Source: a virus (lineage: Duplodnaviria > Caudoviricetes). Taken from it: DNA of 39,504 bases. The DNA is taken from positions 1-39,504 of IMG/VR virus record IMGVR_UViG_3300025312_000115, one strand, 5' to 3'. Both the position numbers and the translations under genes were made by a program. Below the pieces are notes generated by a model. That model was not told the origin of the DNA. It did no database searches and was given only the letters and a program-made list of their open reading frames with translations. The first letter of the stretch is position 1; each line of letters starts with the position of its first letter. Below are positions 1 through 39,318 of this stretch, piece by piece.

Positions 1-24
1 ACTGGGCGCGACAAAGCTCACTAG

Positions 25-53
25 TTGACGTACCAGTACTAGACTGGTATTCT
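25..53 (+). promoter_or_regulatory. Sigma70-type promoter with an overlapping palindromic operator
   Basis: TTGACG (25-30), 17 bp spacer, TG-G-TATTCT (-10 at 48-53). Inverted repeat TACCAGT-actag-ACTGGTA (31-49) fills the spacer. Confidence 0.65.
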
Positions 54-106
54 ACCCTGCAAGGTGGTGAACGGGAATACCTCTCCAGTCGCCAACCTTC
101 TCCTAC

Positions 107-152
107 GGCCCACTGGATTGATTCTTTGTCCTTTCGATCAATCCAGTGGGCC
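107..152 (+). terminator. Perfect 16-bp hairpin (terminator or processing stem)
   Basis: GGCCCACTGGATTGAT (107-122) is the exact reverse complement of ATCAATCCAGTGGGCC (137-152); 14-nt pyrimidine-rich loop; no strong U-tract. Confidence 0.5.
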
Positions 153-182
153 ATCACATTATTCTGGAGTACTAGAAATTGA

Positions 183-218
183 CTAACACATCTAGCACAA
201 CTAACACATCTAGGACAA
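183..218. repeat. 18-bp tandem direct repeat, 2 copies
   Basis: CTAACACATCTAGCACAA (183-200) and CTAACACATCTAGGACAA (201-218), one mismatch. Confidence 0.85.
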
Positions 219-240
219 GTATCTGATCCGCCGACATTCG

Positions 241-999
241 GTGAGCGAAAAGGTTGCTGGTAGCGCAGTAACTAAGTACGCAGCCCGAATAGTGGGGGTG
301 ATCGCTCTCTCTCTTTACGCCGCAGTTGTACCGGCATCCCACTACGCCGTTGCTAACCTAACAGTTTCTCCGCCCCATTTCCCCTCAACCCCTCCGCCCC
401 CTCCCCTTACGCTCACTCTCATCACTGAGATACCCGAAGTCATTGTTGAGACTATTGAGGTGGAGACTAAGACTGATGAGGTGGAGATTGTGGTGGTCGA
501 AGTGGTGGAGCCGGTAATCGAAACCACGACCATCACTACCACTACTACTGATGATTTGGTAGTGGAGGCTACTAGACTAGCGGAACCATCAACCGTTAGT
601 CTATCTCAGCAGGATACACAGATTACTCCCCTCCCGCCCCCTCCGCCCCCACCTTCCACTATTTCACTGGAGCAACTTGATCAAGCGGCAATTGAAGCCG
701 GGTGGCCCCAAGAAGAGGGTTGGTGGCCTCAGATGCGGAGAATCATTACCGAGTGTGAGAATAAATCCCTAAACCCTCACGCCCATAATACCAGCGATCC
801 CTATGGGGGAAGTGCCGGACTAGCACAATTAAACGTTGGCTGGTTCAGCTATCTCGGAGAAGATCCCTCTATGATGTTCGACCCCGTAGTCAATCTCCGT
901 ACCGCTCTCACTCTAAGAAAGCGAATCGGTGGGTTCGGTACGGGAGCAGGATGGTCATGCTTCTACAAACTCGGATTGGACTTGCGATGGGAGAAATAA
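241..999 (+). CDS. Lytic transglycosylase (SLT/lysozyme-like) with N-terminal hydrophobic anchor and Pro/Thr/Glu-rich linker
   Basis: N-terminal hydrophobic helix; PPPP and TTTT linker; C-terminal 'ECE...NPHAHN...SAGLAQLN...FDPVVNLRTA...W' matches the SLT E / GLxQ / DPxxN pattern. Confidence 0.72.
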   Translation: MSEKVAGSAVTKYAARIVGVIALSLYAAVVPASHYAVANLTVSPPHFPSTPPPPPLTLTLITEIPEVIVETIEVETKTDEVEIVVVEVVEPVIETTTITTTTTDDLVVEATRLAEPSTVSLSQQDTQITPLPPPPPPPSTISLEQLDQAAIEAGWPQEEGWWPQMRRIITECENKSLNPHAHNTSDPYGGSAGLAQLNVGWFSYLGEDPSMMFDPVVNLRTALTLRKRIGGFGTGAGWSCFYKLGLDLRWEK

Positions 1000-1017
1000 A
1001 TCGCTAAACTGGGGAGC

Positions 1018-1944
1018 ATGTCAACTCCCGACATTTCCTCTAAGAACATTGAGCCCAGTGACCAAATATCACTGGGCTCTTTGCTGCCCAATCTCGGGCA
1101 GTTTACACTCAACAACGAAGAACAATCTTGGGTAGCTGATTTCGCTAGTAAGCTCAGTGATCAAGTCCAAGGACTGAAGGGGAATGAGAAGGCCGCGTAC
1201 GACGACCTTGAATTCTATTCTCGATTCGTAATGGGCGAGGATAACATAGAATACACACGTAATTCCTCGTTTCTCCGCAACATTTACTGGGACTGGCAGT
1301 ATACTAACGACGATATGCTGGTTCTCGGCCCGCGAGGCTCAGCAAAGTCCACCGCAGTCACAATCACATCAACTACTTGGGAGATTGGACGTAACCCTGC
1401 CGTCCGCGCCCTCCTAGCATTCGCATCGATGGAAGCCCAAGGTCTTGCGTTTGCTAGGCAGCTTGACCACATTATTACCAAGAACGAACGATACATCTCG
1501 ATCTTCGGGGAGCTAAAACCTCAGAAGCCTGAGAAATGGGATGAGAGCGAGAAAATCGTTCGTCGCTCCACCCCTCCCTCTGGATTAAAAGACCCTACCA
1601 TTGCAGTTGTCGGACTCGGCTCCGCTGTCCCCTCTAAACGTGCTGATATCGTAGTCTGCGATGACCTAGTCACTATGGAGAACGCTTATAGTGATATTCA
1701 GCGCGCAAAAGTCATCCGCTTCGTCTTTCAAACTCTCTTCCCGATTCTTGTACCGGGCGGACGGCGCGTGATTATCGGAAGTCGGTGGGATGAGCGAGAT
1801 CTCTACGCGCACACCGCTACTCAATGGGGACTTCAATTCCCCGAACCCGTCCAAATTGACCTCGGTGAGATTATCTCTCACGCTGTTACCAACGATCTAG
1901 TGAAGTATGATGACAAGAAATTCGTTGAAAGGCCCATACAATGA
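1018..1944 (+). CDS. terL: Terminase large subunit, N-terminal ATPase fragment
   Basis: Walker A 'GPRGSAKST', Walker B 'IVVCDD', coupling motif 'IIGSRW..RDLY'; the ORF stops before the lid and nuclease region. Confidence 0.88.
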   Translation: MSTPDISSKNIEPSDQISLGSLLPNLGQFTLNNEEQSWVADFASKLSDQVQGLKGNEKAAYDDLEFYSRFVMGEDNIEYTRNSSFLRNIYWDWQYTNDDMLVLGPRGSAKSTAVTITSTTWEIGRNPAVRALLAFASMEAQGLAFARQLDHIITKNERYISIFGELKPQKPEKWDESEKIVRRSTPPSGLKDPTIAVVGLGSAVPSKRADIVVCDDLVTMENAYSDIQRAKVIRFVFQTLFPILVPGGRRVIIGSRWDERDLYAHTATQWGLQFPEPVQIDLGEIISHAVTNDLVKYDDKKFVERPIQ

Positions 1945-2912
1945 CGCTGATTCAGCCCTATCGAGTTATTACGCATGTAGATCTCTTTGCTGGGATAGGT
2001 GGAATGCGCCTTGGAGTCGAGGGAGCGGCACGGATTCTTGGCTACGAATCTGAAATTCTTGTGTCTTGTGATATCAATAAGGACGCCCAACGTACCTACA
2101 GCCGATATTTTGGGGGAGATTATACCCACCACGATATCAGAAATACCCACTTAGAGGGATTAAAAGGTAAGGTGGATGTCCTGACCGCTGGATTCCCGTG
2201 TCAGCCGTTCAGCAAGGCTAATTCCACCTCTGTGAAGGGGGATAATCATCGTAGTGGCCTTCTATTCCTTGATATGCTCCGAATCATAGGGGAAACTCTC
2301 CCGAGGGTGCTGGTGTTAGAGAATGTTCCCCAGTTCGCCTCTATAGACGATGAAGTTCAACTCGACACCATAATCGCTTCTCTCAGCGATCTCGGCTACT
2401 TCCTCTGGTGGGATATCTACTCCCCAGAATCTTTTGTCCCGCAACGTCGTAATCGATTCTTCCTTGGAGCAGTTCTTGGGAGTGAACTACCCCGGATGTG
2501 GAATCCCCCACTCAACAGTTGGCGTCCAACACTAGGAGATATTCTCGACCCTGTTGAAGAAGTCAACCCCACTCTTCATCTAGCAAAACACAACTGGTAC
2601 AATCTGCTTACTAAGAGGACTCACCGCCCCGTCTATATTCCGCGTGAAGAAGCAGATTATCATCAAACAGTTACAGGCCCACTATTGGCGAATGGGCACA
2701 AGGGATCACAGGATATCCTGATAATGGAGCCCTATAGCGCGATTCCGCGAGTCCTCTCCGTATGTGAGATGACCAAACTCATGGGCTTCCCCTACGATAT
2801 ATTCAAGTGGAACATCCCTAAAACTACGGCACATCAGCAACTCGGCAACTCTGTAGTGCCTGAGCTAATCACCAACCTCCTACTTCCGATGCTAGAGCAG
2901 ACACTTGGCTAA
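1941..2912 (+). CDS. DNA (cytosine-5)-methyltransferase
   Basis: Motif I 'DLFAGIGG', IV 'GFPCQPFS', VI 'LENV', VIII 'QRRNRFF', X 'QLGNSV'; ATGA overlap with the terL-N stop. Confidence 0.95.
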   Translation: MTLIQPYRVITHVDLFAGIGGMRLGVEGAARILGYESEILVSCDINKDAQRTYSRYFGGDYTHHDIRNTHLEGLKGKVDVLTAGFPCQPFSKANSTSVKGDNHRSGLLFLDMLRIIGETLPRVLVLENVPQFASIDDEVQLDTIIASLSDLGYFLWWDIYSPESFVPQRRNRFFLGAVLGSELPRMWNPPLNSWRPTLGDILDPVEEVNPTLHLAKHNWYNLLTKRTHRPVYIPREEADYHQTVTGPLLANGHKGSQDILIMEPYSAIPRVLSVCEMTKLMGFPYDIFKWNIPKTTAHQQLGNSVVPELITNLLLPMLEQTLG

Positions 2913-3210
2913 GCCCCCTATCTACTCCTTCTGGTCGCTGGTGGATCGTAAATCCTATCACCCAAAAGGCTGTTGGCTCTGGACAGGTAAGGTAAATCGT
3001 AGTGGCTACGGATACTTCACCATATTTGGGCGGAAGATGTACGCCCATCGAGTCGCCTACACCATAGTAAAGGGGCAAATCCGTAGAGGATGGGAAATTG
3101 ACCACCGCTGTACAACTAGACTATGCTGTAACCCTAGACATCTGGAGCAAGTGACCCCCAGCGAGAATAAACGGCGAATAACGGATCGGAAACCGCATCA
3201 AGGAATTTAG
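2905..3210 (+). CDS. HNH endonuclease (homing-endonuclease type)
   Basis: 'CWLWTG...GYG...AHRVAY...IDHRC..RLCCNPRHLE.VT..EN'. Confidence 0.9.
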   Translation: MAKPPIYSFWSLVDRKSYHPKGCWLWTGKVNRSGYGYFTIFGRKMYAHRVAYTIVKGQIRRGWEIDHRCTTRLCCNPRHLEQVTPSENKRRITDRKPHQGI

Positions 3211-3213
3211 AGA

Positions 3214-3447
3214 ATGTGCCAATCGTGCCGCCCAACGTACGTTGATTTTACACAGCGACCGAACTATGCTGTACACTTTAATCCGTTAAGTATCGGTATC
3301 GATATGTGGGATATCCGTGTCGTTATTGCCTGTCCCTTTTGTTTTATCGCTACCGATGTCATTCTAACAACTGGGAAGCGTAAAGCCACTAATCTTCCTC
3401 ACGAGTTTGAGTGCTGCATCGCCCATATCATGTTTAGGGATGTGTAA
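3214..3447 (+). CDS. Small Cys-rich hypothetical protein (possible Zn-binding)
   Basis: CxxC twice plus HxxxCC; fills the gap between the HNH gene and terL-C exactly. Confidence 0.55.
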   Translation: MCQSCRPTYVDFTQRPNYAVHFNPLSIGIDMWDIRVVIACPFCFIATDVILTTGKRKATNLPHEFECCIAHIMFRDV

Positions 3448-3450
3448 ACA

Positions 3451-4503
3451 TTGCCGCGATTAATCTACGAACGCGCCCTCCATGTTGATGAAGCTACTGG
3501 GCGCATAACATCATACTGGCCTGAGCGATGGCCCCTCCATCTTCTAGCCAAAGAGCTAATCGGGATGGGCAGCGCGTTCTTCGCAGCAGCCTACCAGAAT
3601 GATCCATCCGCCCTCGAAGGTTCCCTACTAAAAGCTAACTGGCTACATCCCTATCTTGGGAGTGAGCTTGAAGCACACCGACGATCTCTTGGAGTTGAGC
3701 ATGGAACCATACATTGTGGAATCGACCCCACCCAAGGAGGCATCGACGGAGATCCCGACTTTTGCGCCGGTATTGCAGTTGAGGTACTTGAACATCGAGG
3801 CTACCTTATCGATTTCTTCCTCAAGAAACTCCGAATCGAGGATCAGGCCCAATACTTTGAAGATTGGCTAACTTTCCAGTCACCGTCATTCACAATCATA
3901 GAAGATACTACTAGTAAAGGATATGTGTACAATGCGCTTGCCCATCAAGTCAACAGCGGTACAGGTACTAAACATGCTATTACCATTGAGAAGCCGCAAG
4001 GTCGAAACGCAATCGGTAACAAACAAGTGCGCTTTATGTCTATGGCCCCTAGATTCGAGAATGCACAAGTTCGGGTGCCGGGCCTCCAAGTTGGTAGTGA
4101 AATCATACTTGATCCCCGCTGGGAGCCGTGGTTTACCCAGTGGCGAAGCTTCCCAAGCGGTCATGATGATGGATTGGACGCTGCCTACTGGGCAATCTTC
4201 TCAGGCTTCCGAATTGATCCCGGTGCGAGTGCGAGTAAGCTTCCCACAGGCACAGACACCCCCGCTAGAGTTGATTCAACTAATCCAAAACTTGTTGGAA
4301 TCTTATGCGAACGAGAAGCACACCTAGCGTTTGGTAAGTCTATATCAGAGTGTATAAGGTGTATGTTGACACTTGAAGACACTTTCATGTATGATGAGCA
4401 AACGGTGGGGACTCCGGGACGGTCGGGACTAGTTCGCACCCTTGATACTCGCTCAATAGGTCAACCGCGTAATCGGCCTAATAGAATCAGGATGATGAGG
4501 TAA
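3451..4503 (+). CDS. terL: Terminase large subunit, C-terminal fragment (ATPase lid plus RNase H-like nuclease)
   Basis: 'YWPERW...FAAAYQNDP', 'GIDP', 'IIED', 'FPSGHDDGLDA'; TTG start preceded by AGGGA; ~100-aa C-terminal extension. Confidence 0.88.
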   Translation: MPRLIYERALHVDEATGRITSYWPERWPLHLLAKELIGMGSAFFAAAYQNDPSALEGSLLKANWLHPYLGSELEAHRRSLGVEHGTIHCGIDPTQGGIDGDPDFCAGIAVEVLEHRGYLIDFFLKKLRIEDQAQYFEDWLTFQSPSFTIIEDTTSKGYVYNALAHQVNSGTGTKHAITIEKPQGRNAIGNKQVRFMSMAPRFENAQVRVPGLQVGSEIILDPRWEPWFTQWRSFPSGHDDGLDAAYWAIFSGFRIDPGASASKLPTGTDTPARVDSTNPKLVGILCEREAHLAFGKSISECIRCMLTLEDTFMYDEQTVGTPGRSGLVRTLDTRSIGQPRNRPNRIRMMR

Positions 4504-4513
4504 CCCACAACCC

Positions 4514-5080
4514 ATGAAGAATCCACTCTCAATTACTACGGATAAGCGTAAAGCGCGCGAAACTATTACGCGGAATGGGTTTGATGAGTTCTTTAGAGAT
4601 CCCGCCAATCCTGGCAAGCCGCTCCAAGTACTCCCATCTGCATCTGGTTACAATCCCGAACAGGAATGGATTAGCTTTGCTTGTGAAGTCTCGCCCAATA
4701 ACGGGAGCGGTGGGGAGAACAGTTATCAATGGCAGCCTCTCATCACCCAACTAACCCCTTGGAGGGCCTACATTGATCTTACTGGGATCGAATACTCCGA
4801 TCACTTCATTATCCAGACCGAAATTCGAGTTCATTCCCCCAACTCTATTCCTCGGTACCCTAAAGATGCTAGAGGATACATTTGGGTACTTGATGACCGA
4901 CTTGCTATCACACTTAGAAAAGCAAATAGCGGAGAGCCTGATTCCATCCACGTCAATGGTTCACCGCTCAGCTTCAACAAGATCCTGTCCGTAGAGCCGT
5001 TAAGCGGGCCGTGGGAAGCGAGACTATCAATTGCCCAAGTCCAAGGGATTAGTAAGAAGCTTCGGGTACTGACGTTGTAG
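4514..5080 (+). CDS. Hypothetical protein
   Basis: 188-aa ORF packed between terL-C and portal; no motif recognised. Confidence 0.65.
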   Translation: MKNPLSITTDKRKARETITRNGFDEFFRDPANPGKPLQVLPSASGYNPEQEWISFACEVSPNNGSGGENSYQWQPLITQLTPWRAYIDLTGIEYSDHFIIQTEIRVHSPNSIPRYPKDARGYIWVLDDRLAITLRKANSGEPDSIHVNGSPLSFNKILSVEPLSGPWEARLSIAQVQGISKKLRVLTL

Positions 5081-5132
5081 CTCCGGCGTTATTGTGGTAG
5101 AGTCACCACGTAGCCCATTGTAGTCACTGTAT

Positions 5133-5146
5133 AGTCTTGCGGACTT
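5133..5146 (-). promoter_or_regulatory. Palindromic motif AAGTC-CGCAA-GACT, copy 1 (inverted)
   Basis: AGTCTTGCGGACTT is the reverse complement of the core found at 13308 and 28026; it lies 21 nt upstream of the portal start. Confidence 0.55.
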
Positions 5147-5167
5147 ACCGCGCCGGGGAGAGCCATC

Positions 5168-6727
5168 GTGCTAGTCAATGGTACCAACGCCCAGAAGCCT
5201 TCCCGTGCGTACTCGGAAGCGACGATAATCTCCTACCCTACCGGACGCACTGAAGATTCAAACTATCGTTCTACAGGCATTGGAGGACGCAAATCCCTCA
5301 AAGATGCTCTCGGTAGGGAGCTTCCCCCGTACTTGCATGATAAGCACATCGCCGTCTCCTTTCTTGCTTATCGTGTTAACCCGATGGCCCACCGGCTCAT
5401 CGAGATGCAGGTCAACTTCGTCCTTGGTAATGGGATCACCGTAACGTGCTTTGATTCTCCAGAGGCTCTTGCAATCATTAGCAGCTTCTGGAGTGACCCC
5501 TATAACAACTGGCCCCGACGCATCGCTGCTCGACTCCGTGATCTCTACCTTTATGGGGAGTGGTTGCATCGCCCCCTTGTGAACCCGAACTCCGGGTTTG
5601 TGTTCATGCGCGATGTGCAGCCTGATAACATCGACCATCTTCTCCCTGACCCGTACGACCACTCCCAAGTCGATAGGATCGTCCTCAAGCAGAAAGAATC
5701 AGGTACCGATTACTCCGCTCCCAACATTTGGGCGTATAATATTCGGGAGAGACTAGACGAGAAGCTTGCAATCGTTAGTGAGCCATCCGGTGAACTGTTC
5801 CATTTTGGAATCAACGACACCACCGACTCACTTCGTGGTGTTGGTGAACTGTTCCCTCTGATTGACTACATTGACCTATACGACGGCATGATCTTCGCTC
5901 GTGCTGAAAAGATCGAGAACATGGGCCATATGTACTACGATCTCACGTTGGAGGGGATGAGCGAACAGGAGATGCGGAACTATCTCACCCAAGAGACTAA
6001 TGTTCCTCCGCGTCCCGGTTCGGTGTTCGCTCATAACCCACAAGCAATCCTCACAACCGTTACTGCGGACTTGAAAGCTGATGATCATGCTGTTGATGTC
6101 GGCGTAATGAAGTCCAACATCGTCTCGTGGGCAGGGTGGCCGGGAACTTGGTTCGATGAACCCGGTTCGGCTGGTCGTGCTGTTGGTGCTGAGATGGCTG
6201 AAGGTACCCTCAAGAACATCACTCAGCTTCAAGCAACCATCGCCCAACTCCTACGTACTGAGATTGACTACGCCATCTTCCAAGCTATCCTTGCTGGTAA
6301 GCTCAATCCCAAGAGTGCCAAGGTTAATAGATTGGGCATCCCCAACTACACTATTAGCTTTAGTCGGCCTACAGCAAAAGATATTCAGCGCATGGGGCCA
6401 TCACTTGCGAGATACGCATCTTTCATTGAGACAGTAACATCAAAGGTACCGCTTCTCACTCAGGAAGAGGGCCGACAGCTTGTTGTTGCTCAGATTCAAC
6501 AGTTGGGGTTGAATGATGTTCCGATAAGCATGGTACTGCCTACTACACTTCCTAAGATCCCCGAGCCGAAAGACCCCAATAAGGTTCCGCCACCATCATT
6601 TGGTAGTAATGGTAATGGCAACGGCGGTAGTCCTGCTACCAATCCAAAGGTTGCTGCTAAGGTAGCCGAAAACGCCCAGATTATTGAGGGAACACATATC
6701 TCTCAATTGTTTGAGAAACTATACTAG
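5168..6727 (+). CDS. Portal protein
   Basis: Position after terminase, 519 aa, 'NPMAHRLIE...FVLGNGI', 'LYLYGE', 'RGVGEL' portal-like motifs, Pro-rich tail. Confidence 0.85.
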   Translation: MLVNGTNAQKPSRAYSEATIISYPTGRTEDSNYRSTGIGGRKSLKDALGRELPPYLHDKHIAVSFLAYRVNPMAHRLIEMQVNFVLGNGITVTCFDSPEALAIISSFWSDPYNNWPRRIAARLRDLYLYGEWLHRPLVNPNSGFVFMRDVQPDNIDHLLPDPYDHSQVDRIVLKQKESGTDYSAPNIWAYNIRERLDEKLAIVSEPSGELFHFGINDTTDSLRGVGELFPLIDYIDLYDGMIFARAEKIENMGHMYYDLTLEGMSEQEMRNYLTQETNVPPRPGSVFAHNPQAILTTVTADLKADDHAVDVGVMKSNIVSWAGWPGTWFDEPGSAGRAVGAEMAEGTLKNITQLQATIAQLLRTEIDYAIFQAILAGKLNPKSAKVNRLGIPNYTISFSRPTAKDIQRMGPSLARYASFIETVTSKVPLLTQEEGRQLVVAQIQQLGLNDVPISMVLPTTLPKIPEPKDPNKVPPPSFGSNGNGNGGSPATNPKVAAKVAENAQIIEGTHISQLFEKLY

Positions 6728-8314: not shown

Positions 8315-8368
8315 GGCCCGTTGACACCTTTAATCTAGAAAAGGTGTTGACGGGCCTCTTGCTATACT
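8315..8368 (+). promoter_or_regulatory. Hairpin followed by an extended -10 promoter upstream of the capsid gene
   Basis: GGCCCGTTGACACCTT / AAGGTGTTGACGGGCC stem (8315-8356, two G-U pairs), then TGCTATACT (8360-8368). Confidence 0.5.
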
Positions 8369-8418
8369 GCATTCTCGCAATGGAGTCCCCTTTCATTCAT
8401 ACGGAGAGTGTAAACTTA

Positions 8419-11043
8419 ATGGACAACCTACAGCCTCTACGTGACGCCCTGAAAGCCCTTATGCTGGCTAAAGGCGCACGTAATGTAGAAGAGGATAAGT
8501 ACGAAGGACTCACATACGCTATCGACTGTGTTAAGCGTATTCTAGTTAACGATTGGTCATTCGCAAAAGCTATGGCGGAGGGTTCGTTTGAATCCTTCTT
8601 CGCTATTGAAGCTGGTGCGAAGATCTCTAACGCGACCCGTGAAGTCCTCGATGGTATCATTAGTGCCCTCACCACTCTCTCTAGTGTGGCGAAGGTAACG
8701 GCGGCTGATGACGCTCCCGCAGCCGATGCACTAGTACAGGAAGCTCGGGACATCATCGCGGCTACCATGATGGAGATTGAGAAAGCCGCTCCCTCCACTC
8801 CACCGGCTGCTCCCGGCTACCCCAAATTCTCTAAGGTAGTAGAAGATCACAAGGTTCCTGCCGGACTCGAAATTATGCCGACCGAGCCGATCTTCATCTT
8901 TGAAGAGGCCGAAGGTTCCACCCCCACCGCCCCGCGATTCCGCACACTTGTTATCAAAGAAGGTGTGAGTAAGAACCGAGTCAAGTACAGCGGTAAGGTT
9001 CTGAAGGAATCCATCGATAAGCTGGAAGGTCGCGGCATGTACGTCGATCATCCAGCAGGTGCGCGTAGTGGCGATTCTAGTCGCTCCCTTGCTACTAAGG
9101 GCGGTTGGTGGGCAAACGTTGAGTACCATGAGGGGATTAAGCTTCCTGATGGCTCAACAATCAACGGCATCATTGGAGAGCTTAATCTACTCTCCCCAGA
9201 GAACTCTCCGGTGCCTTGGCTTCCGGGGATGATTAAGGAATCTATCGAGCGCGGGCGACCCGAACTCGTAGGTATCTCAATTCTTGCTGCTGGCAAGACC
9301 CAAATTATCAAGGAGAATGGCGTATTCGTTAAGGAAGCACTCAGCATTGATTACTACGCATCAGCGGATGCAGTCGCAGAACCGGGAGCCGGTGGACAGC
9401 CACTTTCCCTCATCGCAAATAATGGAGTCGATGTAGACGTGAAGAAAATCGAAGAGATGACTCTGGATGAGCTGAAAGAGGCACGTCCAGACCTGTACGA
9501 AGCCGCTGTTGCGGAAATCAAGGCTAAGGCTGCTGGCGATCCGCCCGCGCCCACCCCTGCGCCTAAGATTGAAGCTAACGCCGAATTTACCAAGCTGATT
9601 GAAGATACTAAGACTCTTCAGGATCAGCTTGCGGAAGCCGTTAAGAGTGGGCACATCGCTGCTACTCATAACGCGCTTCTCCTTCGCCTTACCAAGTCTC
9701 GGCTTCCACAGGCCGTTAAGACTGATCTGCTGGCGGAAGCCGATGGTAAGATCCTCTCGACTGAAGAAATCGAAGCTCTTGTTAGCAAGAGTGAGAAACA
9801 CGCTCTGTCGGTGATGACCGAAAGTGATGCTCCCGGTCGCCTTCAACCGAACATGCCGATCCGCTACGGTAGCCTTATCGAAGGCGCCATCTCCCCACTC
9901 GATCAGGCTCGTGCCGCCCTCGATCTCTTCTTCGGCGCTCCCGTCGAGAAAGAGATGGAAGGTAAGTTCCCGAAGATTCGGAGCTTCTCCGAGTTCTATC
10001 GGAACATTACCGGCGACTACGAGTTTAGCGGGTACTACGGCCCCGGTGGTGCGCTTGCCGAGTACTGGGATCAGCCTGCTAACAACTTCGTCGAAGCACT
10101 TCCGGGGGCAACGCACATCATTGGTGGTGGTACCATCACGATGTCGAACCTCCTGAACAACTCGATGAACAAGTCGCTCGTTGCTCAGTATCAGGTGCAG
10201 AACAAGTGGTGGGAGCCAATCGTTAGTAAGACGGATCTTGCTAACTTCAAGGCTCAACAGCGTGTTCGGTTGCAGAACTTCGGTTCCCTCACCGAGCGTA
10301 CTGTTGATGGTGCTGAGTACACCGAAATGGACTGGGGAGAAGTCAGCGAGACGTACACCCCGACCGGATTCGGTAACGTTGTGACGGTTGGCCGTCGTGC
10401 CATCATCAACGACGATCAGCGGGGTATTCAGCGGATTCCTCAGCTTATGTCGGCATCAGCAGTGTTTACTATCAACGAGTACGCTGCTAACACCTTCTTC
10501 CTCGCCAACTCCGGTAACGGCCCGACCCTTACCGATGGGGTACAGATCTTCAACCTCGCTTCGCATCAGGGCAACCGTGTAACCACGGCGCTTGATCGCG
10601 CAGCCGTTAACGCCATTCGCCACATCATCATGAAGATGACGAACGATGCTGGTAAGGTCATTGGCCTTTCCGGTCGTGGCTATCTTCTCACCGGCATCGA
10701 TCTTGAAGATGTCGCCTACGAGCTGATCAAGTCGGTCAATGTGCCTGAGAGCGCAAACAACGCTCCCAACATCCTTGCTGACTCCAGCCGTGGCCTTCTC
10801 GGTAACATCGTTGTTCCTCAGTTCACTGATACGAACAACTGGTACTTCATGCTTGCACCTAGCGAGCTTGCTTGTATCGAGATGGGCTTTGTTCTTGGAC
10901 AGGAGAACCCAGCGTCCTTCGTTCAGGATCAGCCGACCGTCGGCATGGCATTCACCCACGATGCTATGGCGTTCAAGATTCGCCACGAGTACGGTGGTGA
11001 CTGGATCGACTACCGTGGTGCGGCAGCGTCCATCGTCGCCTAA
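8419..11043 (+). CDS. Prohead protease-scaffold-major capsid fusion protein (HK97 fold, Mu gpT-like capsid domain)
   Basis: One open frame (8344-11043; likely start ATG 8419 after GGAGAG). Protease-like 'SKNRVKY..YVDHP...GISI...DAVAEPGAGG', coiled-coil scaffold, capsid domain 'RRAIINDD...FKIRHEYGGDWIDYRG'. Confidence 0.85.
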   Translation: MDNLQPLRDALKALMLAKGARNVEEDKYEGLTYAIDCVKRILVNDWSFAKAMAEGSFESFFAIEAGAKISNATREVLDGIISALTTLSSVAKVTAADDAPAADALVQEARDIIAATMMEIEKAAPSTPPAAPGYPKFSKVVEDHKVPAGLEIMPTEPIFIFEEAEGSTPTAPRFRTLVIKEGVSKNRVKYSGKVLKESIDKLEGRGMYVDHPAGARSGDSSRSLATKGGWWANVEYHEGIKLPDGSTINGIIGELNLLSPENSPVPWLPGMIKESIERGRPELVGISILAAGKTQIIKENGVFVKEALSIDYYASADAVAEPGAGGQPLSLIANNGVDVDVKKIEEMTLDELKEARPDLYEAAVAEIKAKAAGDPPAPTPAPKIEANAEFTKLIEDTKTLQDQLAEAVKSGHIAATHNALLLRLTKSRLPQAVKTDLLAEADGKILSTEEIEALVSKSEKHALSVMTESDAPGRLQPNMPIRYGSLIEGAISPLDQARAALDLFFGAPVEKEMEGKFPKIRSFSEFYRNITGDYEFSGYYGPGGALAEYWDQPANNFVEALPGATHIIGGGTITMSNLLNNSMNKSLVAQYQVQNKWWEPIVSKTDLANFKAQQRVRLQNFGSLTERTVDGAEYTEMDWGEVSETYTPTGFGNVVTVGRRAIINDDQRGIQRIPQLMSASAVFTINEYAANTFFLANSGNGPTLTDGVQIFNLASHQGNRVTTALDRAAVNAIRHIIMKMTNDAGKVIGLSGRGYLLTGIDLEDVAYELIKSVNVPESANNAPNILADSSRGLLGNIVVPQFTDTNNWYFMLAPSELACIEMGFVLGQENPASFVQDQPTVGMAFTHDAMAFKIRHEYGGDWIDYRGAAASIVA

Positions 11044-30150: not shown

Positions 30151-31020
30151 CTACACTTTATGGTACTTGAATGTTGCTACGTTTAGTTGGAGGGGATCAT
30201 CCTCGATTGCTGGTAAGTCAATCGACATATCAGCAAAGGCTTTGGGGAAACGATTTTGGCACTCCACTGCGATGTAGCCAAATACTTGACGCATCTCAGC
30301 CTCCGCTCCTATTGCTGTCCGCATCTCGATAACATGACGTAGCTCTCGGAGGTTGGTAGTCCAGACGATATCGGTTGCTACACCGTGAGGGGCTAGACGC
30401 CTGAAGTCCGATGTCAATAATTTCTTAGTGTGGAAGTCCTTGATCTTATCGATCTCCCAGAGAGCAGCGAGTTCTTCTTGCCACTGTGAGAGGATTGCCA
30501 TCTTATGACCGAACCAATCAGCCATACCGTTCCACCACTCTTGCTGTTCAATCAGCAGCGCGTTCTCCATGCTGGGGGGAAGGAGTGAACCGAAGGACGT
30601 AGGGATGGTGTAGTTGATATCTTCAAGACGGACGTAGCGCATCGACTGTTGCGAGAATGCACCGTGGCGATGTCTTACCAATTCGTGCGTGAACACCCTA
30701 CTGACGTTACGGAGGGTAAACTGAACCGACACATGCTCTAGTACTGAGCCATGACCTGACTCTATGATGTTAGCAATGTAAGCTGCGGGATCTCCACGTA
30801 CCTTTGAGATATTGGGATTGAGTCCGGCACCGAAGCTCTTGTAGCAGACTCGTCCGGCGAACTCGATTAGCTTCTCGACATCATCATGCCAGTTGTAAAG
30901 GTCATCGTTGAAATGCCATTCATGAGCACCGATGTCGTCGAGGTAGCTTTCGATTGCCCCAATACTAGGGAGAGTCATCGCGGTGATGTAGACGTAAGGA
31001 CGTACAGGTGTGGCGGTCAC
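30151..31020 (-). CDS. thyX: Flavin-dependent thymidylate synthase
   Basis: 'GHGSVLEH', 'SRVFTHELVRHR..AFSQQSMRYV', 'NLRELRH...R'. Confidence 0.95.
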   Translation of the reverse strand: MTATPVRPYVYITAMTLPSIGAIESYLDDIGAHEWHFNDDLYNWHDDVEKLIEFAGRVCYKSFGAGLNPNISKVRGDPAAYIANIIESGHGSVLEHVSVQFTLRNVSRVFTHELVRHRHGAFSQQSMRYVRLEDINYTIPTSFGSLLPPSMENALLIEQQEWWNGMADWFGHKMAILSQWQEELAALWEIDKIKDFHTKKLLTSDFRRLAPHGVATDIVWTTNLRELRHVIEMRTAIGAEAEMRQVFGYIAVECQNRFPKAFADMSIDLPAIEDDPLQLNVATFKYHKV

Positions 31021-35691: not shown

Positions 35692-35947
35692 GATTGTAGA
35701 CCTCGCTAAACGCTCTAGTTGCAGCATGAAATGTGGGTTCGGTTGATATAAACTCACCGTCAGGACTGTAAAGGTCGTACCTCCATACTATTCCTCTACG
35801 GAGAGCGATTCGTACGTGCCGAATCTCCCAGCCCAGATTATTCCGATATATTCGTGGGCCTCGTGAATCCTCCAGTGTGTACTTACGGAATGAGCGACCG
35901 TGGAAGTCGCGTTCGGTAAACGATAATACACTTGTAGGAATGCTCAC
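35678..35947 (-). CDS. Hypothetical protein
   Basis: GTG start overlapping the polymerase stop (GTGA). Confidence 0.5.
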   Translation of the reverse strand: MSIPTSVLSFTERDFHGRSFRKYTLEDSRGPRIYRNNLGWEIRHVRIALRRGIVWRYDLYSPDGEFISTEPTFHAATRAFSEVYNHARS

Positions 35948-38457
35948 GATGCAAACGGTATCCCCTCTTTGTATTTCTTGTATGAGATAAGAGAGCCCCA
36001 CGAACGGCCAGCTTCTACATCAATCTTAACTGGTACCTTGAGAGGGTAGACTTGGGTCATGATAGGGAATACTTCGGTTGCGAGAACATCATATTCACTC
36101 TCTGGGCCTTCCAGTACAATCTCGTCATGGACTTGAAGAATGATCTTAGTACGTAGGTTCATTTGTTGAAGTAGAGAGTGTACCGATAGTATGCAGAGTT
36201 TGAAGTAATCAGCCGCTGAGCCCTGAACCGGGACGTTAATAGCTGCCCGCTCAGCCTCTCCACGGATTGCGCGGTCGCTTGCGGTAATGTTAGGGAGGTA
36301 GCGGCGGCGTCCAAGGATCGTTTCAGCGTAGCCGTTTCGTCGGGTGAAAGCTCGGACAGCCTCTTGCCATGCCAAGATACCGGGGTAGGCTCCGTAGAAT
36401 CCATCGATGAACCTCCTAGCTTGATCTAGGGTAAGCTTGAGGGTAGGGGTACGCATCAGGACGCCCTGTTCACCGATCCCATAAAGGGTGCCGAAGCCAA
36501 CAGTTTTAGCAATAAACCGGGCGTTCTTCCACTCCAATGGTAGCATTTCATCTTCGGTCTTTCCAGTTATGAAGGTGGTGGTGTTATCGTGGATATCCAT
36601 ACCTTCGGTGATGAGCCGGATCATGTTCTCATCATCGCTAAGGTGAGCAGCCATACGCATCTCGATCTGTGAAAGGTCGGGAGCGTAGAGAAGGTGGTCG
36701 GGGCGGGATGCTACGAATCCCTTACGGATCGTGGCCCCCTCCAAATCTACTGAAACATCATCTCGCTTTCGTGCTGGTATGTTCTGGAGATTCGGATTCG
36801 CGTAGCTAACGCGCCCAGTCTCGGTACCTGTCTGTTTGCATTCGGGGTGAATGCGTCCATCGAGAGGGTCGATCCAAGTAGGAAGGCCATCGATGTAGGT
36901 GCTAAGCATCTTACGTATTCCGCGAATAGTAAAGATGTTTCGGACGAGCGGATTGTCAATGTGTTCTCCTAGAGAGACTCGATCTGTCGGGTACTCGGGG
37001 TGTCCCCTACGCTTCTTTGGCTTCGGAATAACATAGGGATGATCCCCAAAATACAGGGTGTCTCGGACTTGTAGGTAGGCGTTAACGTTGATGACTTTGC
37101 CGATCAGCTTAGCCTGCTCAACAGTTTGCTCGACCTGAGCCTGCTCTAGGTTAGCCTTAGCCTCAGCCAGTTTAGAGGGATCGAATGCGATTCCCGCCCT
37201 CTCAGTTGCTACAATGATCTCAGTGAAGGGAAGCTCTACATCGGTGTAGAGGTGGGATAGGTCGAGGGAGCGTTCAGCTAGTTTAGGGGCTTGATAGAGA
37301 TGTAGTCGAAGTGAAGCATCTGGGTCTTGGGCTGCGTACTCCACCACCTCATCCTCGATGGTATCTTGGGCTGCTCGCATATCGAGTTGATTCTCACCTC
37401 TCCAGTCCTTAGACTTGAAGCGTTTGAACTTATCGATGCGGATCATCTCGATACCATAAGCGTGGTGGATTCCATCCTTCAAGGAGAGTGGATGATCCCC
37501 CAGCAGCCACGCTTCGACCATCGTGTCTCGATAGTTCTTTATCGTAATACCGATGGACTCACAGATGTGCCTCTCGAACTTCGCATTCGAGACGATCTTA
37601 ATACGCTTGGGATCTTCCAATCCCATCTTGAGATCCTGCATTAGCTCGATGGCTTCTTCTTTCACCTGAAAGGGATAGTAGAGGCCGTTGCCGATCTCAT
37701 TACACACTCCCACTCCCACAATACCGGCAGCGCGTCCTAGTCTATCGGTTTCAAGGTCGAAGCCGAATGGGAGATTGTCAGGGGCGTACACCACGTCCAT
37801 GATCTCATCCCATGATGCCTTAGTCTTACGAAAGGGGATGCTCTCAGGAAGCTTAGGGGCTTTCCCCTCCAACGTTAGTCGTACGTTCTTAAGTTCCGCT
37901 ACGTACCCAGCCATTAACCCTACGACGTTGCGAAGTACGAATGCTGGGTGGACGGTAGGCATGATCATCCGCTCCCGTCCCAACACCTCCCGCTTATAGA
38001 TGTTCCCCCGCACCTGCGTAATCGAAGATTTCTCTTCTGGCATGAACCATCGAAAGGCGGAATCACCTAGACATATGATTAGGTCAGGGTCTACTTTAGC
38101 GATTTCTATGGTGAGCCACTGCCGACACGCCTTAATCTCGGGGCCCGTAGCTTTACGGTTTTCGGGTGGGTGACAATGATTCACATTAGTCTTATAGAGA
38201 TCATTGAGATCCCACCCCGCTTGCTTACAAGCGTTGGTTAGCAGTTGTCCACTTCTCCCAACAAGTGGCTTACCATCACGATCTTCCTCTTCGCCGGGGG
38301 ATTGTGCGACGAACATTACTCGGGAGGGGTAGGTGCCGAATCCCGGTACTACTCGACGGCGAGTCGATGAGAGAGTGCAATCCCTACACGATAGGAGTCC
38401 GGGGAGAATCATGAGTCCAAAACTAGGGTCGATGGGATCGGGTGAGAGATCAGTCAC
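35944..38457 (-). CDS. Family A DNA polymerase with an N-terminal uracil-DNA glycosylase (family 4-like) domain and 3'-5' exonuclease
   Basis: UDG: 'CRDC', 'VAQSPG', 'PLVGRSG', 'CHPPENR', 'HPAFVLR'. Exo: 'FDLET', 'YAAQD'. Pol: 'DLSQIEMR', 'RFIAKTVGFGTLYG', 'VHDEI'. Confidence 0.95.
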   Translation of the reverse strand: MTDLSPDPIDPSFGLMILPGLLSCRDCTLSSTRRRVVPGFGTYPSRVMFVAQSPGEEEDRDGKPLVGRSGQLLTNACKQAGWDLNDLYKTNVNHCHPPENRKATGPEIKACRQWLTIEIAKVDPDLIICLGDSAFRWFMPEEKSSITQVRGNIYKREVLGRERMIMPTVHPAFVLRNVVGLMAGYVAELKNVRLTLEGKAPKLPESIPFRKTKASWDEIMDVVYAPDNLPFGFDLETDRLGRAAGIVGVGVCNEIGNGLYYPFQVKEEAIELMQDLKMGLEDPKRIKIVSNAKFERHICESIGITIKNYRDTMVEAWLLGDHPLSLKDGIHHAYGIEMIRIDKFKRFKSKDWRGENQLDMRAAQDTIEDEVVEYAAQDPDASLRLHLYQAPKLAERSLDLSHLYTDVELPFTEIIVATERAGIAFDPSKLAEAKANLEQAQVEQTVEQAKLIGKVINVNAYLQVRDTLYFGDHPYVIPKPKKRRGHPEYPTDRVSLGEHIDNPLVRNIFTIRGIRKMLSTYIDGLPTWIDPLDGRIHPECKQTGTETGRVSYANPNLQNIPARKRDDVSVDLEGATIRKGFVASRPDHLLYAPDLSQIEMRMAAHLSDDENMIRLITEGMDIHDNTTTFITGKTEDEMLPLEWKNARFIAKTVGFGTLYGIGEQGVLMRTPTLKLTLDQARRFIDGFYGAYPGILAWQEAVRAFTRRNGYAETILGRRRYLPNITASDRAIRGEAERAAINVPVQGSAADYFKLCILSVHSLLQQMNLRTKIILQVHDEIVLEGPESEYDVLATEVFPIMTQVYPLKVPVKIDVEAGRSWGSLISYKKYKEGIPFAS

Positions 38458-38621
38458 TTAAGCAGCCTATCCTTAAGTTGAGATGCGCTGTAACTATACG
38501 GTGCTAACCACATACCAGTAAGGTTGGCCCAGCGCCGAAACTCTTGCGGCGAAAGCTTTTTGGACATCTCAATATAGGTATCCATCATGGGATTAGTTGG
38601 TTCTAGTTCATTCTTCGTCAT
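38454..38621 (-). CDS. Small hypothetical protein
   Basis: MTKNELEPT...; overlaps the MTase stop and the polymerase start. Confidence 0.45.
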   Translation of the reverse strand: MTKNELEPTNPMMDTYIEMSKKLSPQEFRRWANLTGMWLAPYSYSASQLKDRLLK

Positions 38622-39318
38622 TGATTTGCTCCAACTCGTCGCCCATCTCAACAGTACCGAGTAGCTGTCGGCCCTTACGAAGTATGGTAAGATATTCGTG
38701 CGCGAACGGTATCCCAGTGTTGTTGACCCCGTTGCTAACAGTGTTGTGTTGGACTTTGATTATCCTAAGCTCCTTGTGGAGAGCAAGGAGCAATAGCTTG
38801 TCTGCTTCAGTGATGTCATCCGTTAGAAAGTAGGTACGTCCACTGTTGCGGGTGCGTAAGTCCGCCAGTAGCAGTGCAATACGCCCATTCTCACTAAGTA
38901 CCATACGTAGGAACTTAAGAGTCAACCGCATCCTATTAAGGTACTGGGCGTAGGTACCGTTGCTAAAGTCGTTGGGGTTCTCACTGTAGCGGATCATGCT
39001 CCAGTAAGGAGGATGCAAGAATATGAGGTCGGCACCTTTACCATCGGTGACTGCACTTACCTCATCTACAATCTTCCACTGAGTCTTGTGGCTAAGGATA
39101 TCATCCCCATTCTTAAGATCATAGCCCAAGTATGGGGTACCTAACGTGTGACAAACATCTTGGGAGGTTCCACTACCCTCCATCGGATCTAGTACAAGAG
39201 TGGGAGAGAATGACTCGATCAGGTCTTTGACTAGATAGCCGGAACAGTTACCACGCCATCCCCCATTTCCCCACGGCCCTCTACTGGGGTAGCTTGCGAT
39301 TGTTGATGTGAAAGCCAT
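38608..39318 (-). CDS. DNA amino-methyltransferase (N6-A or N4-C)
   Basis: SAM-binding 'LDPMEGSGTS' followed by catalytic 'HPPY'. Confidence 0.85.
   Translation of the reverse strand: MAFTSTIASYPSRGPWGNGGWRGNCSGYLVKDLIESFSPTLVLDPMEGSGTSQDVCHTLGTPYLGYDLKNGDDILSHKTQWKIVDEVSAVTDGKGADLIFLHPPYWSMIRYSENPNDFSNGTYAQYLNRMRLTLKFLRMVLSENGRIALLLADLRTRNSGRTYFLTDDITEADKLLLLALHKELRIIKVQHNTVSNGVNNTGIPFAHEYLTILRKGRQLLGTVEMGDELEQINDEE

Follow-up and report, generated by a model that had tools for sequence, protein, structure and literature searches.

A probably functional large terminase carried on two genes, with the break within the ATPase domain, in a clade of tailed phages

Two terL genes at the head-module locus

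The 39,504-nt stretch of DNA analysed here (the window; positions 1 to 39,504 of the IMG/VR virus record IMGVR_UViG_3300025312_000115, Duplodnaviria; Caudoviricetes) encodes the large terminase (TerL, gene terL) in two stand-alone genes of the same strand, located beside the portal and capsid genes (Table 1). In the whole clade of phages to which the window belongs, terL is divided at one fixed point of the ATPase domain, and we propose that the two products likely reassemble, in a non-covalent manner, as a working subunit of the packaging motor.

The following lines of evidence show that the two genes are complementary parts of TerL, as proposed in a first-pass annotation made from the letters of the window alone. 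First, the N and C halves matched phrog_38 (the PHROG TerL family) consecutively and end to end, at positions 259-463 (E 2.5e-30) and 485-700 (E 1.5e-30), respectively. Second, they correspond to the positions 29-248 and 256-487 of a profile of 36 intact relatives; since they cover this profile, no TerL sequence was lost at the break, which the alignment places between profile positions 248 and 256. Third, the N half possesses the motifs of an ASCE ATPase, i.e. the motif that we take to be Walker A, the Walker B motif and the coupling motif, at residues conserved in 46 or 47 of the 47 aligned N sequences (out of 61 short N matches), followed by a tail of about 40 amino acids. Fourth, the C half begins past the coupling motif and comprises the lid/hinge region, the RNase H-like nuclease and a variable basic tail. 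The nuclease acids D92, E151, D239, D240 and D243 are invariant in the 33 aligned C sequences (32 of the 34 C matches plus the window), 20 of which match PF17289. ATPase and nuclease are thereby carried by separate open reading frames (ORFs), both conserved, which jointly cover TerL. A six-frame search of the 39.5-kb contig, which is possibly incomplete, found neither an intact terL copy nor a third TerL piece. The genome in the window is probably not complete, because the contig has no terminal repeat and the identical N protein sits on a contig of 58,875 nt.

Table 1. Features of the two-gene terL locus of the window and of its relatives. Positions are those of the window, except where a locus or protein is named.
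Feature	Position	Strand	Remarks
TerL N chain	1018-1944	+	308 aa, ATG start
Walker A (presumed name), P105-R106-G-S108-A-K110-S111	1330-1350	+	P105, R106, S108, K110, S111 invariant 47/47
Walker B / catalytic acids, I211-D216	1648-1665	+	D215, D216 invariant 47/47
Coupling motif (GSRW..DLY), G254-Y263	1777-1806	+	G254, Y263 47/47; W257, D261 46/47
Clade-specific N tail, W270 to stop, beyond the break	1825-1944	+	W-x-x-x-[FIL]-P start, variable remainder
C5 cytosine DNA methyltransferase (cargo 1)	1941-2912	+	PF00145 E 1.7e-50; TIGR00675 above cut-off
Free-standing HNH endonuclease (cargo 2)	2905-3210	+	PF13392 E 7.4e-13
77-aa Cys-rich ORF (cargo 3)	3214-3447	+	no Pfam or PHROG match
TerL C chain	3451-4503	+	350 aa, TTG start
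C-chain head, residues 1-55; ATPase-domain part of one-chain TerL	3451-3615	+	E7, A9 in 32/33
188-aa gene, no family, TerL-C to portal interval	4514-5080	+	no Pfam, PHROG, NCBIfam or ESM Atlas match
Portal protein	5168-6727	+	phrog_10963 E 2.3e-18
Head protease, scaffold-like region and major capsid, 899-aa fusion	8344-11043		Pfam/PHROG profiles
TerL-C/portal-interval genes in relatives	L002 3080-3526; L004 8321-8854; L005 7966-8409; L090 5530-5988; L092 8157-8585; L094 1884-2327; L006 4505-4948
Outlying N-only proteins	P0107, P0119, P0122, P0125, P0126, P0153, P0160, P0161, P0183, P0196, P0206, P0212		independent splits or fragments

Distribution of the split and content of the gap

With the N half as query, 63 proteins were retrieved: 61 short ones (175-343 aa; 50-100% identity for those close to full length) and two long ones (40-43% identical); longer forms (at least seven matches) show identities of 40% or less, which is weak evidence taken alone. 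In an exhaustive HMMER search the six top representatives (188-330 aa) scored 294-418 bits and the next match 195 bits, and the C half retrieved 34 proteins of 246-417 aa. The position of the break appeared to be fixed, as the match to the intact profile ends at 243-251 in 59 of 60 N homologues and starts at 255-258 for 29 C homologues out of 33; of the remaining four, two are headless and maybe fragments. On DNA, 26 loci have an N half of at least 53% identity. Both halves are present in 20 of them, on separate ORFs in every case (20/20), and the other six stop before the C half; the 20 reduce to 13 distinct loci, the window counted. In a FastTree phylogeny of the ATPase region (102 sequences: the window, 21 N-only proteins drawn at random from the clade, every N-only protein from elsewhere and 64 of the 146 full-length ones, truncated proteins being excluded), the 25 sampled clade members are all N-only and group at a support of 1.0, on a stem of 0.62. 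Neither the protein nor the DNA-locus searches found a full-length member among the close homologues.

Further scans gave little more: that with the C half added only L114, a fragment starting at the C head; that with P0107 found nothing; and that of GTDB returned two loci, namely a clade contig in a Porticoccaceae metagenome-assembled genome (L106, identical with the contig of L095) and a distant gene that is intact. No close cultured relative was found in 50,697 phage records, the best tblastn matches having about 25-30% identity; the TerL of Bacillus BSP7 is intact.

Both halves are under purifying selection. The ratios of non-synonymous to synonymous substitution rates (dN/dS, Nei-Gojobori) are, for N and C respectively, 0.096 and 0.101 (L002/L003), 0.131 and 0.077 (L092/L005), and 0.073 and 0 (L090/L097, only 70 codons for C); the pairs made of the window and a relative are saturated at silent sites. 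The single-nucleotide polymorphisms between strains are synonymous in the runs examined, both in the N tail (4/4) and in the C half. These values of about 0.1, together with the invariant catalytic residues and the clade-wide pattern, make it hardly credible that we are dealing with a misassembly or with the decaying gene of a defective phage, a reading to which the possibly incomplete contig and the internal frameshift of one relative (L100, see below) might otherwise lend some weight. The same layout occurs in four further contigs (L001, L083-L085; 5-8 base differences over 900-5200), and the region is covered by contigs from the four runs examined (4/4), with no joint bypassing the gap; for these two reasons an assembly chimera is unlikely, and the reading as a whole is already largely refuted. 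The region is present in 16 DNA runs, from soil or sediment of one year, which may represent one campaign.

About a dozen N-only proteins outside the clade stop at the same loop, on branches among full-length proteins, and at L102, also outside the clade (3-332 and 917-1192), a separate C half lies about 640 nt downstream on the DNA. The split may thus have arisen repeatedly at this loop, which we consider as a lead only, because the other outliers come without DNA context and the deep supports of the tree are low. Two distant loci (L052 and L081) have stops at other places, and hence were not counted as this split.

The gap between the halves is a hotspot of gene insertion and not the cause of the split. 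Among the 12 relatives, seven have halves that overlap or are at most 18 nt apart, and L095 is probably an eighth such case, given an extended start; the gap lacks a gene in 7-8 of the 13 distinct loci. Elsewhere it holds a 98-aa ORF (L004), a 90-aa ORF (L092), an HNH gene alone (L089) or a methylase gene alone (L097). The most telling comparison is that of L090 and L097, with N genes 99% identical and C-gene starts 97% identical, which are set apart by a 632-nt methylase in the gap of L097, a methylase with no significant similarity to that of the window. Since the gap is empty in most relatives and L090 and L097 differ solely by the methylase, the HNH gene is dispensable for the split. In the window, the gap is 1,506 nt long and its three ORFs overlap or are spaced by 3 nt from their neighbours; the methylase start (1941) overlaps the N-chain stop (1944), and the HNH gene abuts neither terL half. 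No target-site duplication was found, the repeats being short and chance-like; promoter-like sites were not enriched (2 vs 4.7 in shuffles), and none of the terminator-like sites (7 vs 3.3 in shuffles) is at a junction.

The first-pass annotation compared the split with the nrdA gene of phage Aeh1, which has reportedly been fractured by an endonuclease gene, mobE. The likeness is that of an essential enzyme cut inside a domain, with its halves on separate genes and an HNH gene in the gap. The difference is that the endonuclease fills the gap of nrdA, whereas the gap of the clade is empty or otherwise filled in 11 of the 13 distinct loci, an HNH gene occurring only in the window and L089 (2/13); the analogy therefore does not explain the present state. 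That a homing endonuclease of the HNH type broke terL apart in the ancestor of the clade, in the way of mobE, and was later lost in most lineages would be compatible with our proposal, and we regard it as possible, though doubtful. The HNH proteins of the two loci belong to one PHROG group and are 42% identical over 91 aa, which may be family background; an ancestral homing event may have occurred, but this identity does not establish it. The two hosts form one branch, weakly supported (0.72), and an endonuclease-split reductase working as two peptides is cited in PMC10448857. Besides the rarity of the HNH gene in the gap and its position away from both halves in the window, the outlying N-only proteins that end at the same loop on other branches speak against this origin, as they point to a break-tolerant loop rather than to one insertion.

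We consider it very unlikely that the halves are rejoined into one chain, be it by RNA splicing, trans-splicing, a split intein, a frameshift or a ribosome bypass. Group I and group II intron cores need some hundreds of nt, and in 4 of the 11 loci measured (L095 and L097 left aside) the stretch that can be removed is no longer than 80-95 nt; it amounts to 1,623 nt of back-to-back ORFs in the window, and it is protein-coding and under amino-acid constraint. The first-pass annotation had likewise judged the genes too tightly packed to accommodate an intron core. Rfam gave no match in window positions 1-5400 at E<=1, and none at gathering score in 12 related loci, although divergent introns can escape Rfam. 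As for inteins, which had been judged absent from the junctions, no intein Pfam domain turned up among the 47 N or the 33 C members, and the N tails lack cysteine (47/47). The C chain begins about three residues or less before its TerL match, at a position that is constant across relatives while the start codon changes (ATG, GTG, TTG), and adjacent pairs of halves were found in all three frame offsets. If we still keep a small probability for rejoining, it is because a spliced terL has been proven in phage ICP1 (PMC10448857); intron- or intein-bearing terL genes have been described in other phages, and the gap of the window does contain an HNH gene. The intron-bearing terL of ICP1 and the split-intein "fractured genes" also have terL in two ORFs, but these rejoin into one chain.

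Position of the break and a proposed two-chain motor

The AlphaFold2 model of the N half (mean predicted local distance difference test, pLDDT, 87; predicted template modelling score, pTM, 0.77) comprises five core strands, the last of which ends at residue 254, and DSSP detected no strand past this residue. It aligned with residues 8-220 of PhiV-1 TerL (Z 23.6, root-mean-square deviation 2.2, 210 residues aligned) and with residues 99-305 of T4 gp17 (Z 16.6). The best Foldseek match of the C model was 8dgc_E (E 1.2e-07), and its nuclease begins at residue 53-58, equivalent to T4 gp17 361 and P74-26 258. With an N half ending at T4 gp17 305 and a nuclease starting from C residue ~56 (T4 361), the break lies about 55 residues upstream of the hinge between ATPase and nuclease. 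In T4 gp17, subdomain I has a six-stranded sheet, subdomain II includes residues 314-353 and the hinge spans 354-364 (PMC3074133). From these end points and this subdomain map, the C residues 1-55 would correspond approximately to T4 306-360, i.e. to the sixth strand, the lid and the hinge. It is worth noting that the C head shows a strand-like pattern, L-[IV]-[YF]-E-x-A, in about 30-32 of the 33 sequences, similar to the W-x-x-[IV]-x-Q-x-A strand of intact relatives, which suggests that the last ATPase strand belongs to the C chain.

We propose that the split would have arisen once, on the stem of the clade, and that the halves would operate as two separate chains. The N chain would fold with five core strands bearing the Walker A, Walker B and coupling motifs. 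The first nine or so residues of the C chain would insert as the sixth strand, bringing along the lid, the hinge and the nuclease, and the halves would lock by strand complementation with no covalent link, because in the mapping it is the C residues 1-55 that supply these elements. The new gene boundary would have become a tolerated landing site, where methylases, HNH genes and small ORFs come and go as passengers. A motor of two chains, with the break in the ATPase domain, was the interpretation already favored in the first-pass annotation, and it is the best reading of a split that is clade-wide, fixed in position, placed before the hinge and maintained by purifying selection, the presence of two chains being itself deduced. 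Together, these data indicate that the two-gene TerL of this clade is real, conserved and probably functional.

Several observations weigh against this proposal. First, the beginning of the N tail is well conserved (W270 in 44/47, P275 in 46/47, for tails of 17-88 aa), and its W..[FIL]P element is confidently modelled (pLDDT about 92 at 271-280), so that it could itself cover the groove of the missing strand. Second, the sixth strand is assigned from sequence and range mapping, and both the separate synthesis of the chains and their mutual binding are presumed. Third, a single frameshift close to Walker B (near 2470-2493), due to error or decay, interrupts the N half of the clade contig L100. 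Fourth, L084, a copy of the window, has one non-synonymous change, at 4339, in the variable C tail as read from the sequence. Fifth, about 19 kb of the 58,875-nt contig were not fully searched for a second terL.

The first of these points would fit a different arrangement, which we consider rather unlikely, where the two chains form no locked pair: the N tail would replace the lost strand, the ATPase ring would fold alone, and the lid-nuclease chain would dock only for short periods or by way of the portal, perhaps with a copy number below five. The good scores of the N half modelled alone are in line with it, as is the finding that the isolated ATPase domain of P74-26 binds DNA like the full protein (PMC5389665), in a construct that may or may not include the lid. 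On the other side, the N model has no strand after residue 254, and the C head retains its strand pattern while its residues 1-7 are of low confidence when the C chain is folded alone. Furthermore, the lid of P74-26 caps the active site, and its residue R235 is required for ATP hydrolysis and ring contacts (PMC5389665). A locked pair of chains is therefore preferred.

Known two-gene terminases, neighbouring genes and wider meaning

The premise that TerL is normally one polypeptide holds in that the one-chain form is usual; the best structural and profile match of both halves is indeed the T7-type TerL (T7 gp19; PhiV-1 TerL, PDB 8DGC chain E; NF033889), which differs as a single chain of 586 aa. 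The premise falls short in that two-gene TerLs are already annotated in cultured phages that form plaques, such as KellEzio and BillyTP. The SEA-PHAGES function list reportedly also names a Gordonia cluster. In the Arthrobacter phage KellEzio (cluster AT, Kelleziovirus, KU647626), gp4 and gp10 (260 and 328 aa) are labelled "ATPase domain" and "nuclease domain" in GenBank, and its kin Kitkat, BeatusComedenti and DanielleIgnace also have a two-gene TerL. As in our clade, the break is upstream of the hinge and the WPERW lid is on the second chain, and five genes, including a nuclease, intervene. KellEzio is however distant (30 and 7 bits against the clade profiles), and its gp4 keeps, past the coupling motif, the aromatic..A putative strand motif (YRFRRYAA) that is on the second chain here. 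Its break would thus be about one strand later, after the last core strand. Most phages of cluster AY have the TerL domains on consecutive genes (PMC11920828). In one of them, the Arthrobacter phage BillyTP (PP978841), gp2 and gp3 (359 and 198 aa) are separated at the hinge, with no cargo and with a second gene that opens just before the first nuclease strand; this TerL is of another family, with no match to the intact profile, and the break of our clade is about 55 residues earlier.

The full-text literature searched (most subscription journals and supplements lying outside it) yielded neither a study of this clade nor an experiment with a naturally occurring two-chain motor, and the available text of PMC8472413, PMC3322345, PMC7689252, PMC11564622, PMC12210895, PMC7824862 and PMC7156551 makes no mention of an unspliced two-gene TerL. 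What is unusual is the fixed break point of this clade and its clean pair of a filled and an empty gap, a two-gene TerL being known already from the cultured phages.

Around the terL halves, a gene of 142-188 aa occupies the interval between TerL-C and portal across the clade (Table 1), possibly a motor or portal accessory; in the window, a low-depth contig of run X6 skips or replaces 77 nt of it (4574-4652). Many C-chain tails contain C-x3-(A)H...C-x2-C (4300-4400 in the window), a possible zinc site absent from other tails. Directly upstream of TerL-N, no small terminase is recognisable in the window or its relatives. The window has there (241-999) a protein rich in Pro and Thr that looks secreted and whose end resembles, by eye, a lytic transglycosylase; L089 has a similar ORF (66-407), and L002, L005, L090 and L092 have what we take, also by eye, to be a DUF559-like nuclease. 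Farther away, on the minus strand, are a Thy1 thymidylate synthase (30151-31020), a family A DNA polymerase fused to an N-terminal uracil-DNA-glycosylase-like domain (35944-38457) and a second DNA methylase, N6/N4 (38608-39318).

Why the cut has been kept is a matter of speculation. With the ATPase sheet completed in trans, it might have been maintained, and have arisen repeatedly at this loop, either to spoil sensing by defence proteins such as Upx or Avs3 or to dose the nuclease-lid chain separately, a view that we hold to be improbable. Upx is predicted to thread the ATPase strands 1, 4, 5 and 6, and SeAvs3 binds both domains; against evasion of defence, the ATPase domain by itself is enough to activate EcAvs2 and Upx (bioRxiv 10.64898/2026.04.30.721860).

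TerL-based surveys can easily overlook the phages of this clade or count them as fragmented, because the N half has no Pfam match in any of the 47 members; against NF033889, the N half of the window scores 60.7 bits for a cut-off of 150. Models of the packaging motor rely on a covalent connection that links the ATPase site, by way of lid and hinge, with the nuclease (PMC3074133, PMC5389665), and the clade cuts this connection inside the ATPase fold while both halves stay under selection. Together with KellEzio and BillyTP, it offers three natural break points along one enzyme. It also amounts to a natural split-protein experiment, where combinations of active and inactivated N and C chains would tell which chain grips, which pushes and which cuts the DNA, and whether the two chains need matching copy numbers.

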